From Methanothermococcus sp. SCGC AD-155-E23 (lineage in GTDB: Archaea; AGJL01; Methanococci; Methanococcales; Methanococcaceae), in contig JAHEQA010000050.1 of NCBI GenBank assembly GCA_019561615.1, positions 45-10,499 on the forward strand: a stretch of 10,455 nt of DNA, written 5' to 3'. The notes under the pieces are model-generated. The model was not told the origin of the DNA. It was given only the letters and a program-made list of their open reading frames with translations, and made no database searches. This document shows, one piece after another, positions 1-9,187 of the stretch. Every line of letters begins with the position of its first letter. The first letter of the stretch is position 1. Position numbers and translations under genes: made by a program.

Positions 1-110
1 CTAATAATCCTTCTTATTATAGCCCTTAGAGTCCAGGAGGTAAACGGTGTTCTAATTGTCGCCCTCCTTTTCAGTTATCTTTTTAGAGGAATAAGTTCCT
101 ACCTAGTGGC
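1..110 (+). repeat. 110-bp perfect inverted copy of 3874-3983 (internal fragment of FecCD permease gene), in frame with priL
   Basis: The reverse complement of 1-110 is identical to 3874-3983 when compared base by base. Frame +1 reads LIILLIIALRVQEVNGVLIVALLFSYLFRGISSYLVA, the same peptide found in the 3333-4463 permease. The copy runs to the window edge, so it may be longer. Confidence 0.97.
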
Positions 111-981
111 CAACACCAGATACTACAACCTCTACATTAAAAACTACGTAGAGAGGTACTTTAAAAAGATTGAGAAAACTCTTGATGAGCTCCCAAACAA
201 GGTATCTGTCTGGGAGTTTATAAAGGTTAGTGCCCACTCAAGAAACAACGACTTAAAACTTGAGAGACTAGATGTAGATAGAGGTCTAGTAAATATAGCC
301 CCTGTAAAAAGAACCTACTACATGGAATTGATAAGGGTAAAACTTAGGGAGATGGTGGAGAGGATCAGGGCAGACAGTGATAGAGATGTCCTGAAGAGGG
401 AGCATATCCAGGAGATAGTGAAGTTCATAGAGGGAATGGTCAAACCCCAGGATATAGGAGGTATAAAGGCTGTGAACTTCCAGGGCGAGATCCCCCTGGA
501 GTGGCACCCTCCCTGTATAAGGAAGATACTGGAGGACCTCCTCAGTGGAGGCTCCCCCTCACACTACGCAAGGAGGAGCTTTGTAGTCTACTGGTTCTGT
601 GCAAAGTTCAATCCAAACCTTAGACCTCTCAACAAGGAGGGGGAGTTAGTGAACATCAGCGCCCTGGATATTGCAAAGAGTGAGGAGGCCATAGAGAACT
701 TCATAGAGGAGATGCTGAAGTTATTCAGTAACGTGGAGGACTTCAACCCTGAAAAGACCAGGTACTACATATGTCACAACATAGGCTACAAGGTTGCAGA
801 TCACCTTACCCACTGTGAGTACTGTAAGAACTGGAGGGAGGATGGAGGTAAAGGTCTAAGGTACTACTGCAACCCAGATGAGATCTGTAGGATGAGGAAG
901 AGGGGAAAACCCCTTGTGATACACCCCCTGGACTACCTCTGTTACAACATCAATAGACATATGAAGAGAAAGAAGAAATAA
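106..981 (+). CDS. priL: DNA primase large subunit PriL, 5'-truncated (C-terminal Fe-S domain intact)
   Basis: The motifs HPPCIRKIL..LLSG....HYARR, HCEYC...YYC....IC...HPLDY match the archaeal/eukaryotic PriL C-terminal [4Fe-4S] domain. The GTG at 106 lies in the duplicated permease fragment and has no RBS, and the frame is open back to base 1, so the native N-terminus is missing. Confidence 0.85.
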   Translation: MANTRYYNLYIKNYVERYFKKIEKTLDELPNKVSVWEFIKVSAHSRNNDLKLERLDVDRGLVNIAPVKRTYYMELIRVKLREMVERIRADSDRDVLKREHIQEIVKFIEGMVKPQDIGGIKAVNFQGEIPLEWHPPCIRKILEDLLSGGSPSHYARRSFVVYWFCAKFNPNLRPLNKEGELVNISALDIAKSEEAIENFIEEMLKLFSNVEDFNPEKTRYYICHNIGYKVADHLTHCEYCKNWREDGGKGLRYYCNPDEICRMRKRGKPLVIHPLDYLCYNINRHMKRKKK

Positions 982-3332: not shown

Positions 3333-4463
3333 CTACTGTATCCTTATACTCTTCTCCCCCTTGTATACCAGGTATATTACCAACAGCCCCCCAATTATCT
3401 CCAAGATAGAACCTACAGGTAACACCTGGGCAGGACGGTTTATGCCGTAGAGGTAATTGATAGGTACCCAGTACTTTAAAGATATCAGATGGGCAACTAG
3501 CATCAAGATTATCCCAAGGAGCATAGTTGTAGGTAGTAACCACCTGTGGTCAGAGGTCTTTATCACAACCCTTGCCATGTAGGGAGCAGCTATCCCCACA
3601 AAGGCCATAAGTCCAAGATAGGGCACTATGGCTCCAACTACAAAGGATGTTAAAAGTAGTATCAGAATTCTAACCTTTTTCACATCTAGTCCAAAACTTC
3701 TGGCGTAGGATTCACCGAAGAGTAAGGCGTTTAAGGGTTTTATCAGAAATATACAACCTGTTAAAAAGATAAGGGTAACGACAGTGAGAGGTAGGAGGTT
3801 ATGTATATTGACTCTATTTAAATTTCCGATCATAAACATGTAGTACTCTATAATGGAGAGTTCCTCTCCATTTGCCACTAGGTAGGAACTTATTCCTCTA
3901 AAAAGATAACTGAAAAGGAGGGCGACAATTAGAACACCGTTTACCTCCTGGACTCTAAGGGCTATAATAAGAAGGATTATTAGGGAGAGTATACCTCCAC
4001 ACCAGCCTGCCACTATCTTCTCATCTATGGGAAAGAGGGAGAAGAGTTGTGCAACACTCTCTATAAATATTACCAAGGTTACTGCAAAGAGCACACCACT
4101 GGATATACCTGTGGTATAGGGAGAGGCCAGTAAATTCCTAAAGAGTGTCTGTAGCATTAAACCACAGGCAGATAGTGTTATTCCCACAATAATAGCTCCA
4201 AAAATGGGAGGAAATCGTACCTCCCTTAGAAGGACATACTTAAATTTCTTCTCCTCACTTAGAGGAGGGATATAGAAAAGATCCTCTCCTGTGATTTGGC
4301 GATATATATTGTTTATTAAAGTCTTGGTTTCATATAGAACAAATTCAGTGGTATCTTCCAAGGTGATGGATCTGGCATTACCTCCGTAGTACATAGATAG
4401 TACGGTTAATAATAGGGCAAGAATAGTTAAGGTGACAATTACAAAGTACCTGTAGTACTGCAT
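3333..4463 (-). CDS. FecCD/BtuC-family ABC transporter permease (divergent subunit), 376 aa
   Basis: Multiple TM helices, with VRFPPIFGAIIVG..LS.CGL.LQTLFRNLLASPY..GISSG, an EAA-like loop LFGESYARSFGLDV, and G.MAFVG..AP. ATG at 4463 overlaps the upstream TAA (TAATG coupling), so the ORF-track start at 4535 is unlikely. Confidence 0.9.
   Translation of the reverse strand: MQYYRYFVIVTLTILALLLTVLSMYYGGNARSITLEDTTEFVLYETKTLINNIYRQITGEDLFYIPPLSEEKKFKYVLLREVRFPPIFGAIIVGITLSACGLMLQTLFRNLLASPYTTGISSGVLFAVTLVIFIESVAQLFSLFPIDEKIVAGWCGGILSLIILLIIALRVQEVNGVLIVALLFSYLFRGISSYLVANGEELSIIEYYMFMIGNLNRVNIHNLLPLTVVTLIFLTGCIFLIKPLNALLFGESYARSFGLDVKKVRILILLLTSFVVGAIVPYLGLMAFVGIAAPYMARVVIKTSDHRWLLPTTMLLGIILMLVAHLISLKYWVPINYLYGINRPAQVLPVGSILEIIGGLLVIYLVYKGEKSIRIQ
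3874..3983 (-). repeat. Source copy of the 110-bp inverted repeat matching 1-110
   Basis: Exact reverse complement of 1-110, lying within the intact permease CDS. Confidence 0.97.
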
Positions 4464-5521
4464 TATATCCCCATGCGTCTTATTTTTAGGTATATTATGA
4501 TGGCTATAGGAGCACCTACTATGGAAAGGGGGCATAAAAGAGGTAAGTTATTGGAAGTAGGAGGTATCAAAACTCCAGGTCTCGTAAGTATATCTGCAAG
4601 TAGTACAAATATGGAGCCTAGGATTGCCGTTGTAGGTATTACATAGAGGTGCTTTGAAGTCCCCACCACCATCCTACTTATTATAGGACATACCATACCT
4701 ACGAAGGCTATAGGACCTGTAAATGCCACCACCGTTGCAGTTAATATACAGGAGAGTACTATCAACCATCTCCTTAAATTCTTTATATCCACTCCAACAC
4801 TCTGGGCGTACATCTCACCTAGGAGGTTAGCATCAAGTTTTTTTGAAAGTAGTACATAGGACAGAACAACTACAGGGAGGATTATTAAAGTCATAAGTTT
4901 TATCTGGTCCCAGGTTAGATTACATAGGGAACCCATACCCCACATGAGATAGCTAGAGAGTTCAGATCTCTCCTCTCCAATAAAGTCTGCAGTATATACC
5001 ACAATGGTTGTAAACCCAGAGGCTATGGCACCTATCATGATCCCAGTGATTAGTAAAGTTGCAGTCTGTCTAACAACCCTTGCAATATTGATAACTACAA
5101 ACATGGTTATCAGAGAGCCTAGATAGGCGGCAAGGATAAAGCCATAGAGGGAACGGGGAAATCCCAGATTAAATAAAAGGGAGGTGAAGATATAGAGTAC
5201 CACACCTAGGGAGGCTCCACTTGCCACACCCATTAGGTAAGGATCTGCCAAGGGGTTCCTAAAGTATCCCTGCATAAGTATACCTGCAACTGCAATACCC
5301 ATTCCAACAACAACTGCACCAACTGTCCGTGGCAACCTTAACTTTCCTATAATCTTGTCAATAATAGGATTTCCAGAGGTGCCCTCAAAAAAGAACTTTT
5401 TCAGATGCTCATCTTTTATAGGGATGGTACCCTCTTTAACACTGAGATAAGATAAAAAAGCAAGGATAATAAGGGAGACAAAGAGTACAGTTAAAAACCT
5501 CCTATATCTCAAAGTTTTCAC
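4463..5521 (-). CDS. FecCD/BtuC-family ABC transporter permease, 352 aa
   Basis: Canonical [51 protein letters not shown] (EAA loop), and [16 protein letters not shown] start with AAGGTAG upstream. Confidence 0.93.
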
Positions 5522-5543
5522 CTACCTTTTTTAGAATTAAAGT

Positions 5544-6155
5544 TTAACCCCCAAATATCTTTCTCAAGAAACTCCATATAACCTCTATTATCCATGAGAG
5601 TATGTTGTTATTTTTCTTTTTTCCCTTTTCTTCTACTTCTGGAGGTATGCCTCTCTCTCCTCTTTCCTCCTCACTCTTCCTGATATCTCCTATCACCAAA
5701 TTATAGGTTATAGGAGATAACTTATTGGCATTACCCTTTTCATCTGATACTGTCGCCTCAAATCTTATGGGTATGATTCCTTCTTTCAACGCCTTCCCCT
5801 TTACCCTAAGGAGATGAAAGGTGGAATTTAAAGGTTTATCAAAGAGGGCGAAGGTAAGGAACAGTGAATTGTTCTCCAACTCCAATATATAGAATTCCCC
5901 AGCTCTTTCCTTTATTTCCCTGTTTTCAGTGACATTTATAAACTTAATATGATTTACACCATATACAGGAGTATGGATTTTGCACTCCAAACCACTGATA
6001 TTCCCTTTTAGTCTTACATAGACGTCTATTGTAAAGTCCTCACCTACCTCTACTTTTTTTGGCATTTTTATCTCGAGACTAACATTCTCTGATGCCAGAA
6101 CCTCTTCTACTGATAGTACAACAAGTAGGGCTAACAGCCAGTATATCTTCTTCAT
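5544..6155 (-). CDS. Secreted single cohesin-domain protein with charged linker and C-terminal amphipathic helix
   Basis: Signal peptide MKKIYWLLALLVVLSVEEVLA. The beta-sandwich has a cohesin-like pattern (V.VGE.FT.DV.V...NISG....I...L.FINV...L.....KAL.EG...I......SD..G). It is followed by a K/E-rich linker and ends ILSWIIEVIWSFLRKIFGG. N-X-S/T sequons present. RBS AGGGTG. Confidence 0.7.
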   Translation of the reverse strand: MKKIYWLLALLVVLSVEEVLASENVSLEIKMPKKVEVGEDFTIDVYVRLKGNISGLECKIHTPVYGVNHIKFINVTENREIKERAGEFYILELENNSLFLTFALFDKPLNSTFHLLRVKGKALKEGIIPIRFEATVSDEKGNANKLSPITYNLVIGDIRKSEEERGERGIPPEVEEKGKKKNNNILSWIIEVIWSFLRKIFGG

Positions 6156-6167
6156 AGTAGCACCCTG

Positions 6168-6254
6168 TTAATAAAGTTAACTTTACTTTTATTAAAAAAA
6201 TTCGTAATATATAAATAATATCTTTCCCTCACTTTTATTAAAAAATAGCTTTTT
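6168..6254. promoter_or_regulatory. Divergent promoter region: central TATA box (6208-6215), 14-bp palindrome (6172-6185), 15-bp direct repeats (6185-6199, 6231-6245)
   Basis: TATATAAA at 6208-6215 reads TTTATATA on the minus strand. TAAAGTTAACTTTA is a perfect palindrome. ACTTTTATTAAAAAA occurs twice. Confidence 0.6.
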
Positions 6255-6266
6255 AAGGTGATATGT

Positions 6267-7610
6267 ATGTTAAAGAAGGCGTTAATAGGTGTAATACTCC
6301 TACTCTCCATAGCTCCTGTGATTGCAGAAGGTAACTACAACTACAGGTTGGGAGATGTGAACTGGGATGGAAATATAAACATTGGGGACGTAGTCTATCT
6401 CTTTAAAAATAGGGACCTACCTCTTGAAGAGGGGGATCTAAACTGTGACGGTGACGTGGATATTGGAGATGTGGTATATCTCTTTAAAAATTACAGGAAG
6501 TTAAAGGAACCTATAAAGCATGCCCAAAACATGAATTTAACGTACTATGACGAAAGAGGTAACGTTGTAAACCCCTACGAGGGGGAAAGTTGGACCTATA
6601 AGATCTTTGTAGACGCTACAGGACAAAGATTCCTCCTTAAGAACAAGTCAAAACCAGTACCTAAGTGGGCTAAAGGGATGTACGACATAGTTATAGATGT
6701 ACCACTGGAGAGAGTTGTTGTCATGAGTTCTACACATATAGCACTTATGAAACCCTTAGACGACGATGGATCTGTTATCTCTTCTATAAAGGGAATAATG
6801 TGGGGGAAAAGATATAAGTGGCATTTCAAGGATATAGATAGGGGTCTCAAAAATGGATCGATAATAGACGTTGGTCCAACCTCCAATCCAAACTGGGATC
6901 TCATAATAAATATTTCACCACAGGTAATATTCGTATATCCAGGGTACAGTGGAGATATTATAATTGAGAAGTGTAAGGAGTTAGGTATAACCTATGTTGC
7001 AAATGCAGAGTACTTAGAACCAACATATCTTGCACGATGTGAATGGGTAAAGATGTTCGCAGCATTCTACAACAAGGAGGACGCTGCCAAGAGATACTTC
7101 AGTAGAGTTGAAAAGAGATCCTTCAACGTTAAGAGGAAAACCTATCACTGTGATCCTAACGTATTAGTCGCCTGGGGTAAGAACTATCCAAAGTGGGGAG
7201 GTGTCTTTGTACCTAGAGCTCAGTCCTACGTTGCCAAGGGGATAGTAGATTTCTGTCATGCATCCTATGTATTTGCCGACTACCCAGGTACAGGGAGTGC
7301 AAAGATAGACTACGAGACCTTTGCAGAGAGGGTAAAGAATGCAGATATATGGATAATGCCATCGACAACAGAGTGGTTAACAACCTTCAAGGAGGATCAC
7401 CCTGGATATAAGGAGTTTAAACCTGTAAAGAACGGTAAGTTGTTCTGTATAAGTGACGATTACTGGCAGCTTGGACTGATGAACACAGATCAAGTTCTCA
7501 TGGATCTAGGTACGGTGATACACCCTGAGGCATTCAAGGGGAGAACAACACACTTCTTCCTGAGGTACTATCCAGACAACAATACTGCAGTACCTTATAC
7601 TGCAGGTTAA
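6267..7610 (+). CDS. Dockerin-fused Fe/B12-type (TroA-like helical backbone) ABC substrate-binding protein
   Basis: RBS AGGTGA at 6256-6261 then ATG 6267. Signal peptide MLKKALIGVILLLSIAPVIA has no lipobox Cys. Two GDxNxDGxxxIGDVVYLFKN repeats follow. The SBP motifs are VPLERVVVMSSTHI, P.WDLII...PQVIF, AEYLEP..LAR.EWVK.FAAFYNKE..A, DYE.F......AD.WI and P.K.GK.F...VL.DL..VIHPE. Confidence 0.88.
   Translation: MLKKALIGVILLLSIAPVIAEGNYNYRLGDVNWDGNINIGDVVYLFKNRDLPLEEGDLNCDGDVDIGDVVYLFKNYRKLKEPIKHAQNMNLTYYDERGNVVNPYEGESWTYKIFVDATGQRFLLKNKSKPVPKWAKGMYDIVIDVPLERVVVMSSTHIALMKPLDDDGSVISSIKGIMWGKRYKWHFKDIDRGLKNGSIIDVGPTSNPNWDLIINISPQVIFVYPGYSGDIIIEKCKELGITYVANAEYLEPTYLARCEWVKMFAAFYNKEDAAKRYFSRVEKRSFNVKRKTYHCDPNVLVAWGKNYPKWGGVFVPRAQSYVAKGIVDFCHASYVFADYPGTGSAKIDYETFAERVKNADIWIMPSTTEWLTTFKEDHPGYKEFKPVKNGKLFCISDDYWQLGLMNTDQVLMDLGTVIHPEAFKGRTTHFFLRYYPDNNTAVPYTAG
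6351..6491 (+). repeat. Dockerin module: two 20-aa Ca2+-loop/helix repeats (6351-6410, 6432-6491)
   Basis: GDVNWDGNINIGDVVYLFKN and GDLNCDGDVDIGDVVYLFKN have D/N at loop positions 1, 3, 5, 9 and 12, as in dockerin F-hand motifs. The last 30 nt of each repeat are 26/30 identical, with all differences synonymous. Confidence 0.85.
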
Positions 7611-7636
7611 TCTAAAAAATTATGAGGTGATAGGAG

Positions 7637-9187
7637 ATGAAATGGAAGTCATTACTTATCCTGTTATTAACATCCTTAATAGGAGTATGTTTATGTTATG
7701 GAGAGGGTATTACAGTAGAACTTATACCACATAGTATAGAGGTGGAGGTGGGAGATACCTTTAACCTAGACTTGATGGTAAAAAATGTATCTGTGGAAGG
7801 GAGATGTGGAGGTTTTGATACCGGAGTATGCTACAATTCCTCTATCCTAAAGTTAACTAATATTAAACTAAGTGATATTGGAGAAAATGCCAATCTAAAA
7901 AATATAGATGTATCCTCAGGTCGTATATCCCTGAGATGGTCCTCCTCTCCACCCTATGGGGACTTCAAATTAGCTACCCTGTCCTTTAAAGTGTTAAATC
8001 CTGGAGAGACTGAGGTAGTTTTAAAAAGAGTATTAGTCTTCAATGAAGATGGGCACAGTTATGAAAACATTGTAACCTCTCCAGCAACGGTGAAAGCTAT
8101 AGTTAAGCCTAACCTCTTGATAACTTACCTCTCTATGGATAAGCCTCTCTATAGGTTAAAAACTCCTATAGGTGTAACTGTAGCCAATGGGGGTCAGAAG
8201 GATATTGATGTATCCTTTTCTGTGGATCTGTATGCAGATGCCGATAAAGTAGGCTCTATACCTGTACATGGATTAAAAGCAGGAGAGAAGAGAACTCTAA
8301 CTTTTAAATGGGTGCCTGAGAAAGTTAAAAAATACACCTTAGTGGTGTTGGTAGATCCAGAGAATAAAGTGGATGAATGGAATGAGAAGGACAATAAAGT
8401 TGTAAGGGAGGTTGAGGTACAACCAATAACTACCTATGTTAAAATATACAGGGTCCTCCAAGACAGTGGTACTGTAAAGGCAGTGATAAACGTTTCCAAT
8501 ATACCTGAGGAAAGACCTGTTGGAGGATACGACTTACATATAATGTTAAAAAATCTTTCAGTAACAGATGTGGATTCAATAGGAAAATACAGTTGGTATC
8601 TATCTGACGGTAATCTCTTCATAACAGGTTTCAACATCTCTAAATCTGGAGAGTTCTCAGTAGCCAATATTTCCCTCTATACAACCTATCCAACTTACTC
8701 AGCCATATTATATAAAGCGATTCTTTCAGATATCGATGGTTACACCTTCCAAAAAGTAATTTTGGAGAACGATGTTCCAATAGCAAAGAATATTAAATCA
8801 GAGAAGATAAGAAACTTCGTATCCAGGGCAAAAATCATAGTAGGATCAGAGATAGACGCCACTCTCTCAGCAGAGAATTTAAATTCCTTTATACTGGCAA
8901 ATACACCTCTCGAAATAAATGAGGACTGTATCCTCATAGGAGGTCCAGTTGCAAATCCAACTGTAAAAAAATACCTAGGGCATTTCCCAATGGGAGTAAC
9001 CAACGAATATCCAGGGAAGAATAGAGGGGTTATACAGGTAACGAAGATAAACGGCCACACAGTAGTACTCCTGGCAGGTTCTGATAGATGGGGTACAAAG
9101 GCTGCAGTGGAGTACTTCAAGACCTTGGATGACCTCCCTCAAATACCAATCTTTGTAAAGTGGGAAAATAAGAGAACTGGAAAATAG
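7637..9187 (+). CDS. Secreted multidomain scaffoldin-like protein: cohesin - CARDB - cohesin-like - S-layer C-terminal-type domain
   Basis: RBS GAGGTGA and a signal peptide. aa ~25-155 are cohesin-like (VEVGDTFNLDL.VKNV....GGFD..V.YNSSILKL...GDFKLATLSFKVL.PG). aa ~157-262 are CARDB (PNL.I...VTVAN.G...GLKAGE.RTLTFKW.P....YTL.V.VDPENKVDE.NE.DN). aa ~265-378 are a second cohesin-like unit (VSNIP...VGGYD...SGEF.VA...LSD.DG). aa ~385-512 contain ILIGGPVAN...LAGSDRWGTKAAV, typical of the Methanococcales/Thermococcales S-layer C-terminal domain. Confidence 0.8.
   Translation: MKWKSLLILLLTSLIGVCLCYGEGITVELIPHSIEVEVGDTFNLDLMVKNVSVEGRCGGFDTGVCYNSSILKLTNIKLSDIGENANLKNIDVSSGRISLRWSSSPPYGDFKLATLSFKVLNPGETEVVLKRVLVFNEDGHSYENIVTSPATVKAIVKPNLLITYLSMDKPLYRLKTPIGVTVANGGQKDIDVSFSVDLYADADKVGSIPVHGLKAGEKRTLTFKWVPEKVKKYTLVVLVDPENKVDEWNEKDNKVVREVEVQPITTYVKIYRVLQDSGTVKAVINVSNIPEERPVGGYDLHIMLKNLSVTDVDSIGKYSWYLSDGNLFITGFNISKSGEFSVANISLYTTYPTYSAILYKAILSDIDGYTFQKVILENDVPIAKNIKSEKIRNFVSRAKIIVGSEIDATLSAENLNSFILANTPLEINEDCILIGGPVANPTVKKYLGHFPMGVTNEYPGKNRGVIQVTKINGHTVVLLAGSDRWGTKAAVEYFKTLDDLPQIPIFVKWENKRTGK

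Follow-up and report, generated by a model that had tools for sequence, protein, structure and literature searches.

A dockerin in place of a lipid anchor on the substrate-binding protein of a Methanococcales importer: sequence comparison and modelling of a candidate protein clip

How is the substrate-binding protein (SBP) of an archaeal ATP-binding cassette (ABC) importer kept at the cell surface when it carries no anchor of its own? The question is raised by a divergent five-gene locus on a 10,455-nucleotide stretch of Methanothermococcus sp. SCGC AD-155-E23 (hereafter the window; contig C50 of genome G000, 1.04 Mb and 86% complete), in which an SBP with an N-terminal dockerin lies among genes for two permeases and two secreted cohesin-like proteins. 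The initial annotation had proposed that the dockerin replaces the anchor. Our comparisons argue for that reading, since the cohesin fold, the adjacency of the genes and the co-occurrence pattern of dockerin and lipobox all hold, and the locus probably encodes a type II ABC importer in which a protein clip, rather than lipid, keeps the receptor at the surface. Judged by sequence, the dockerin takes the place that a lipid anchor has in sister species, and the system is conserved in the Methanococcales.

The SBP and its dockerin occupy the following positions.
6267 to 7610, plus strand: dockerin-SBP of 447 amino acids from the ATG at 6267 (the open reading frame, ORF, opens with a GTG at 6258); Peripla_BP_2, E 2e-17
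6351 to 6497, plus strand: dockerin module of two tandem Ca-binding loop-helix repeats, recognised from the repeat and the loop residues

A signal peptide of the signal peptidase I (SPase I) type is followed by the dockerin and then by the Peripla_BP_2 body, and a database protein, P0012, starts at the same ATG. The dockerin DNA holds a 61-nt direct repeat (6350-6410 and 6431-6491). The module scores 22.5 bits with Dockerin_1 of Pfam (cut-off 22.9), or 26 bits with both repeats summed, and its sole sequence match in the PDB is a dockerin chain, 5lxv_B (E 0.007). Both Ca loops are canonical, reading D-N-D-N-D and D-N-D-D-D at positions 1, 3, 5, 9 and 12, and the loop D/N/D and the position-12 D are invariant in 35/35 aligned rows. 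The window SBP has no lipobox and no Cys between its hydrophobic core and the dockerin; after the signal peptide no hydrophobic segment (maximum KD19 1.23) and no transmembrane (TM) tail were found, which bears out the annotation of an N-terminal dockerin on a protein lacking lipobox and TM anchor. Its closest named homologues, from Methanothermococcus and Methanofervidicoccus, are 78-83% identical.

We then asked what the same SBPs carry in relatives, using 40 genomes of the class Methanococci and 40 loci fetched from them. A lipobox-like xx[GAS]C motif is present in 12/12 dockerin-less SBP homologues of the fetched loci and absent from 41 of the 42 dockerin-bearing ones, the exception being an 'ISC' that fits the motif loosely and precedes a normal cleavage site. 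Database homologues follow the same pattern, with a lipobox in 17/18 dockerin-less proteins (one 5′ fragment) and none in 36/37 dockerin-bearing proteins. Across the 40 genomes, 26 have dockerin and cohesin, 11 have neither, one has a dockerin only (G018) and two have cohesins only (G030 and G031, which are 81% and 64% complete and in which the SBP is cut by a contig end). The 30 genomes that are at least 90% complete divide into 21 with both modules, 8 with neither, 1 with a dockerin only and 0 with a cohesin only, so the phylogenomic expectation set out beforehand, that dockerin-bearing SBPs co-occur with cohesins and lipobox-bearing orthologues do not, is borne out. Seven genomes of one genus (g5; five 99% complete, two 86%) carry the same SBPs without a dockerin. 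No match to PF00963 or to our two own cohesin models was found in these seven lipobox genomes, four of which were also empty at E<=1. Every dockerin match falls where this SBP family was found, and therefore no other dockerin cargo was seen.

A natural counterpart is MJ0878 of Methanocaldococcus jannaschii, an orthologue in the 90% cluster of P0038, a lipobox homologue with 65% identity to the window SBP; MJ0878 has a lipobox and a short linker where the window SBP has its dockerin. We found no mention of MJ0878 in the literature searched, whose scope, here and below, excludes most subscription journals.

Within G000, 3/3 dockerin matches belong to SBP genes or to a copy of one. The second dockerin-SBP paralogue (C17:53884-55145) is split by a frameshift near 54816-54834; the end of C27 is a 96% copy of the 3′ part of this gene and the end of C43 a 149-bp identical copy of its dockerin, and this may be a pseudogene or an amplification error. 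Dockerin-SBP paralogues in a longer frame with an extra C-terminal part (549 and 631 amino acids) occur at L127:10322-11908 (G036) and on G011:C138, and are possibly rearranged remnants.

If the dockerin is a plug, a socket should lie nearby, and the initial annotation had placed one in the permease operon.
5544 to 6155, minus strand: small secreted cohesin of 203 amino acids, first gene of the permease operon, identified by model and fold searches
about 5682 to 6092, minus strand: its cohesin domain (residues 22-158), from the fold model
about 5547 to 5603, minus strand: its C-terminal amphipathic helix (hydrophobic moment 0.73)

This protein consists of a signal peptide, the cohesin, a charged linker and the C-terminal amphipathic helix. 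It has no Pfam match itself, and 2/6 orthologues scanned pass the Pfam Cohesin cut-off (37.3 and 30.7 bits). An AlphaFold2 model built from a 9-row alignment has a mean predicted local distance difference test (pLDDT) score of 75, with 10-residue blocks at 83-95 over residues 21-150. Foldseek placed cohesins first (E 4e-9), and VIA-align against 48,161 chains returned cohesins at all of ranks 1-13 (Z 14.6-12.3, root-mean-square deviation (rmsd) 2.6-5.3, 127-140 residues); the first non-cohesin has a Z of 12.2, so that the best cohesin exceeds other beta-sandwiches by about 2 Z. HHalign matched the 203-residue family to the scaffoldin cohesins described below with 98.7% probability. These fold searches confirm, at the level of a predicted structure, that the secreted protein of the permease operon is a cohesin. 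The non-cellulosomal cohesin of Archaeoglobus fulgidus (PDB 2xdh) has the same fold (Z 13.2, rmsd 4.2, 133 aligned residues, 12% identity), and no function was assigned to the pair in that organism. The C-terminal tail is a TM helix in 7/19 small-cohesin orthologues and an amphipathic helix in 12/19 as well as in the window protein, a distribution which suggests that both kinds of tail may hold the small cohesin at the membrane.

A second set of candidate sockets lies directly behind the SBP gene.
7637 to 9187, plus strand: short scaffoldin of 516 amino acids with a signal peptide (Pfam)
about 7703 to 8104, plus strand: scaffoldin cohesin (Pfam Cohesin, PF00963, 35 bits; cut-off 24.1)
about 8105 to 8401, plus strand: CARDB domain (Pfam)
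about 8471 to 8776, plus strand: degenerate cohesin-like domain (own hidden Markov model, HMM)
about 8790 to 9166, plus strand: S_layer_C-type tail (Pfam)

The protein had been annotated with one or two cohesins and an S-layer domain. Pfam recovers the first cohesin, the CARDB domain and the S_layer_C-type tail; the second cohesin is weak, as residues 279-380 have no Pfam match and are recognised by our own HMM only (23.9 bits; E 2.5e-5 against the six-frame genome). The window scaffoldin thus counts one clear and one degenerate cohesin, compared with 3 Pfam cohesin stretches in the G027 orthologue; a 521-residue orthologue of the same build as the window protein is present in G031. The S_layer_C-type tail is also found on an unrelated secreted repeat protein of 604 amino acids (G000 C37:38093-39907; 73% protein identity and 90% DNA identity over 222 bp) and weakly resembles the main S-layer-like protein on G000 C22. 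From these similarities it looks like a portable surface-sorting module.

Could the plug and the socket fit? The complex modelling that had been suggested for the dockerin and the cohesins yielded a weak pass for the small cohesin: modelled with the dockerin and two Ca ions it scored 0.37, against 0.00 for the best of three controls, with at least 98% of contacts agreeing between runs and a partner pLDDT of at least 84. The mark for a pass was reached by 116/157 solved complexes and 2/215 mismatches; at scores <=0.60 it was reached by 18 solved complexes and both of the mismatches. Because cohesin-dockerin complexes have already been solved, the pass may reflect likeness rather than binding.

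Taken together, these data make the following mechanism the most likely one. The SBP, the small cohesin and the scaffoldin would be exported and their signal peptides cut, leaving an SBP that, by its sequence, has no anchor of its own. Its dockerin, as family knowledge and the weakly supportive model suggest, would bind Ca2+ in two loops and dock on a cohesin. The small cohesin, seated on the membrane through its C-terminal helix, would keep the SBP near the permease heterodimer much as a lipoprotein tether does, and the scaffoldin would offer extra docking sites and is probably tied to the S-layer through its S_layer_C-type tail, the least supported step. An orthologous ATPase encoded on C4 would power uptake.

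Several observations weigh against a protein clip. The seven lipobox genomes are kin, and the contrast between lipobox and dockerin may therefore amount to one loss of the cohesin cluster with an anchor swap in each of two paralogues, that is, to few independent events. Because the cohesin and dockerin models were built from the same genomes, the co-occurrence positives arise partly by construction. With a KD19 of 1.25, the tail of the window small cohesin is amphipathic rather than a TM helix, and its attachment to the membrane is thus putative. A stop interrupts the small cohesin gene of G025, the operon of the small cohesin and the SBP genes are at separate places in G022-G024, and in G018 an intact-looking dockerin occurs without a cohesin. 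No NCBIfam transporter model matches above its cut-off, and another metal chelate is therefore possible as cargo. In the SBP family of the window the root, and with it the direction of the swap, differs between two trees: a quick 66-row tree places lipobox forms within the dockerin forms, and a careful 25-row tree unites the dockerin forms in one clade (100/100) with lipobox forms basal. In favour of the clip, the anchor swap affects both SBP paralogue families. In the second, the lipobox forms fall within the dockerin forms and monophyly of the dockerin forms is rejected (approximately unbiased (AU) test, p 5.6e-6; 24 rows, LG+G4); the 25- and 24-row trees are subsets picked to spread over groups.

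The G018 case and the weak complex score are also what would be expected if the SBP were a free receptor trapped under the S-layer, with the cohesin/CARDB proteins acting as adhesins or envelope proteins that merely accompany the gene cassette and the dockerin serving as a Ca-binding stabiliser or binding something else. We consider this improbable. It leaves unexplained why, in two paralogue families, a lipobox turns up precisely where dockerin and cohesins are missing, and gives no account of a small cohesin heading the permease operon or of the lack of other dockerin carriers. G018 was moreover set aside as a counter-example, since no cognate permease was found there (best match 33% identity, compared with 53-91% for orthologues), and its dockerin-SBP, which sits on a long branch, reads as a relic. 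G028 was likewise set aside: its match to permease A does not start until residue 95, and its assembly consists of 90 contigs.

A protein clip would also lead one to expect that receptor and sockets stay together, and we compared the layout of 20 loci, each centred on a dockerin-bearing SBP orthologue. In 18/20 the small cohesin and the SBP diverge (one split gene counted), and in 18/20 the scaffoldin lies directly behind the SBP, so the adjacency of these genes is conserved. Compared with the larger cluster of relatives, the window is reduced. Behind the small cohesin, 15/20 loci have two extra cohesin proteins of ~280 and ~690 amino acids, the longer of which has a hydrophobic C-tail in 14/14 examined; both genes are missing at the locus in the window and in G025. 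Most relatives' scaffoldins are 900-1350 amino acids long, with 3-5 cohesin-like domains alternating with CARDB, and many genomes have a second dockerin-SBP paralogue. The term cellulosome-like, used in the initial annotation, fits these larger relatives better than the window, whose scaffoldin has one clear cohesin. In G022 a three-gene membrane-cohesin operon (L121:5716-9697) is located away from the two dockerin-SBP loci.

The modules themselves show signs of exchange within genomes. Dockerins of the two SBP paralogues are more alike within a genome (identity 0.85) than across genomes (0.75; 13 genomes, 0/100,000 permutations), whereas the SBP bodies are not (0.344 within and 0.345 across; 12 genomes). 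In 3/12 genomes the paralogues' dockerin DNA is identical at 142-143 of 144 nt, third positions included, the mark of gene conversion. First cohesins of the scaffoldin and of the ~690-residue protein behave similarly (0.63 within and 0.47 across; 14 genomes). G000 itself is not special in this respect (within-genome dockerin identity 0.77, tied with 4 others). Such homogenised modules could fit a shared plug-and-socket code, but a neutral origin could account for them as well.

Scaffoldins of 900-1350 amino acids, two further TM-tailed cohesin proteins and two SBP paralogues go well beyond what one anchor needs and, together with this homogenisation, raise the possibility of a capture antenna with a relay: scaffoldins would array many SBPs at or beyond the S-layer, scarce corrinoid would be passed to membrane-docked SBPs, and the clip would be an added capture surface. 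We regard this as unlikely. G006 (98% complete) keeps the transporter and two dockerin-SBPs with the small cohesin as its sole cohesin; the window and G025 do without the two extra cohesin genes at the locus; and the gene conversion may be a neutral result of DNA similarity. To our knowledge no relay step has been described for this transporter family, which counts against the antenna. A broader version, in which S-layer and membrane cohesin scaffolds array interchangeable receptors with gene-converted plugs and relay cargo from outside to the permease, as an import machine built like a cellulosome, is conceivable but doubtful.

A true cellulosome was rejected, as there is no enzyme cargo: G000 dockerins are on SBPs only, and no hydrolase family occurs in the window. 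This agrees with the earlier statement that no glycoside hydrolase is present, none having been found among the 11 window proteins scanned with Pfam. The logic of the clostridial cellulosome is the same (dockerin-tagged cargo, a multi-cohesin scaffold and a surface anchor), but the cargo there is a glycoside hydrolase and here a transport receptor, and anchoring here would rely on tails, either TM or amphipathic, and on an archaeal S_layer_C-type domain. No Pfam match to a carbohydrate-binding module (CBM) or an S-layer homology (SLH) domain was found in the proteins scanned.

Is the reduced locus in the window intact? All five ORFs were confirmed at their annotated positions, and the divergent locus is present as described, with its ORFs intact. 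Two operons diverge from a 111-bp gap, the leftward one encoding the 203-residue secreted protein followed by two FecCD permeases and the rightward one the 447-residue SBP followed by the 516-residue secreted protein.
6156 to 6266, no strand: divergent intergenic region with an A/T-rich TATA-like element at about 6203-6217
3333 to 4463, minus strand: FecCD/BtuC-type permease B, 376 amino acids (PF01032, E 5e-53)
4463 to 5521, minus strand: FecCD/BtuC-type permease A, 352 amino acids (PF01032, E 6e-66)

The TATA-like element is alike in most of 17 intergenic regions, judged by eye. Contigs of other runs bridge two of the gene junctions, the permease-cohesin junction (X3 5446-5943 and X6 5412-5667) and the SBP-scaffoldin junction (X3 7501-8530), which rules out an assembly artefact as the source of the five-gene layout.

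The small size of the locus could alternatively mean that the system is real in relatives and decaying in G000, the window being a remnant. In favour of this, G000 (86% complete) yielded neither the ~280- nor the ~690-residue gene, its scaffoldin reaches half the usual size, and a frameshift splits the second dockerin-SBP on C17. Yet none of the five window ORFs is broken, both Ca loops have canonical residues, the branch length is ordinary, the same short forms occur in G031 and G025, and the cognate ATPase is intact, so that we consider decay very improbable.

What would the clipped receptor deliver? The two FecCD permeases of the initial annotation were confirmed by the Pfam matches given above. 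The start of permease B is best placed at 4463, where its ATG overlaps the permease A stop. No NCBIfam equivalog matched permease B at its cut-off, and the best NCBIfam matches of permease A are two BtuC models, both under their cut-offs. The ATPase is absent from the window locus; an intact orthologue of the cognate ATPase lies on contig C4 (C4:81151-82308; 75% identical to the locus ATPase of G037), and with it all parts of a type II (FecCD/BtuCD) ABC importer are present, namely a Peripla_BP_2 SBP, FecCD permeases and an ATPase. The best match of three locus ATPases is the long corrinoid ATPase model PRK09536, over 354-358 residues and below cut-off. Of the 40 fetched loci, 12 contain cobN-type genes, 5 cbiZ and 6 a CbiR-like gene. 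An ESM Atlas search with the SBP gave generic Peripla_BP_2 clusters and identified no cargo, and no solved structure related to the SBP body came up in a sequence search of the PDB. No relevant paper on methanococcal corrinoid salvage was found in the literature searched. On the gene content and these matches we lean toward a corrinoid (B12 and its precursors) as cargo; another tetrapyrrole or a metal chelate is possible. G000 also encodes a second FecCD-type importer (C36:59553-62588), made up of a single permease, a short ATPase and an SBP with an ordinary lipobox, and both anchor types therefore coexist in this genome.

How does this compare with known systems? Dockerin-bearing NikA/OppA- and TroA-type SBPs are common in anaerobic methanotrophic (ANME) archaea, for which multi-cohesin scaffoldins and surface attachment have been proposed (Chadwick et al. 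2022, PMC9012536). Methanosarcina acetivorans MA_RS09650 has a dockerin at 42-89 and PF01497 at 119-366, and PF01497 is found in 66 rows of the S4 tables (PMC9012536 S4 Data). The window SBP shares this architecture of a dockerin and a TroA/BtuF-type SBP in another archaeal order. The S-layer domain is paired with a dockerin in ANME-2c and with cohesins here. Archaeal cohesin-dockerin pairs are reported to bind specifically, as cited in the same paper, and the function of these modules outside cellulosomes has been called unknown (PMC5244752). The passages of PMC9012536 at hand contain no statement of anchor replacement, no exclusion of lipobox and dockerin, no permease operon and no functional test. 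Known archaeal SBP anchors are the lipobox (with the Cys at +1, as in PMC12462473), a C-terminal TM helix, archaeosortase and the class III signal/bindosome of Sulfolobus (PMC3387779). All of these keep the SBP at the membrane, and the bindosome is likewise proposed to be a surface assembly of several SBPs; a dockerin route is not listed in the parts of PMC3387779 at hand, where the word occurs 0 times.

The initial annotation knew of no functional description of such an arrangement. This stands in so far as we found no functional test; the fusion of dockerin and SBP is itself already published (PMC9012536) and is not new. No paper on an anchor swap or on a Methanococcales case was found in the literature searched, and as far as that search reaches the anchor swap is unpublished.

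The richest archaeal cohesin/dockerin sets are those of uncultured ANME archaea; here the system is small, with one SBP family as the sole dockerin carrier found, and its carriers include the cultured species Methanothermococcus thermolithotrophicus, M. okinawensis, Methanococcus voltae, M. vannielii and M. aeolicus. Because the system is small, its hosts are cultured and MJ0878 provides a natural control, the anchor question can be tested directly by deletion and anchor swap, and the value of the locus is that an old open question can be approached with a clean control from nature and in cultured hosts. A protein clip, if real, would add a non-covalent mode of anchoring for archaeal SBPs and would supply cohesin-dockerin pairs from thermophiles. 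Should the more doubtful import machine exist, evolution could swap a dockerin clip and a lipid anchor, SBPs would have a further general anchoring route, and archaeal cohesin-dockerin pairs would gain a first defined physiological role.

Three further observations concern neighbouring sequence. An asparagine-synthase-type gene and permease B are convergent, with zero bases between their stop codons (3332/3333). Window positions 1-113 are an inverted copy (99%) of 3871-3983, within permease B, fused in frame to an ORF for the primase large subunit; contigs of three other runs differ in sequence before position 104, and this stretch is therefore most likely a chimeric contig end. In four loci (L051, L052, L053 and L069) a nifH-like gene (PRK13230) adjoins the lipobox SBP genes.

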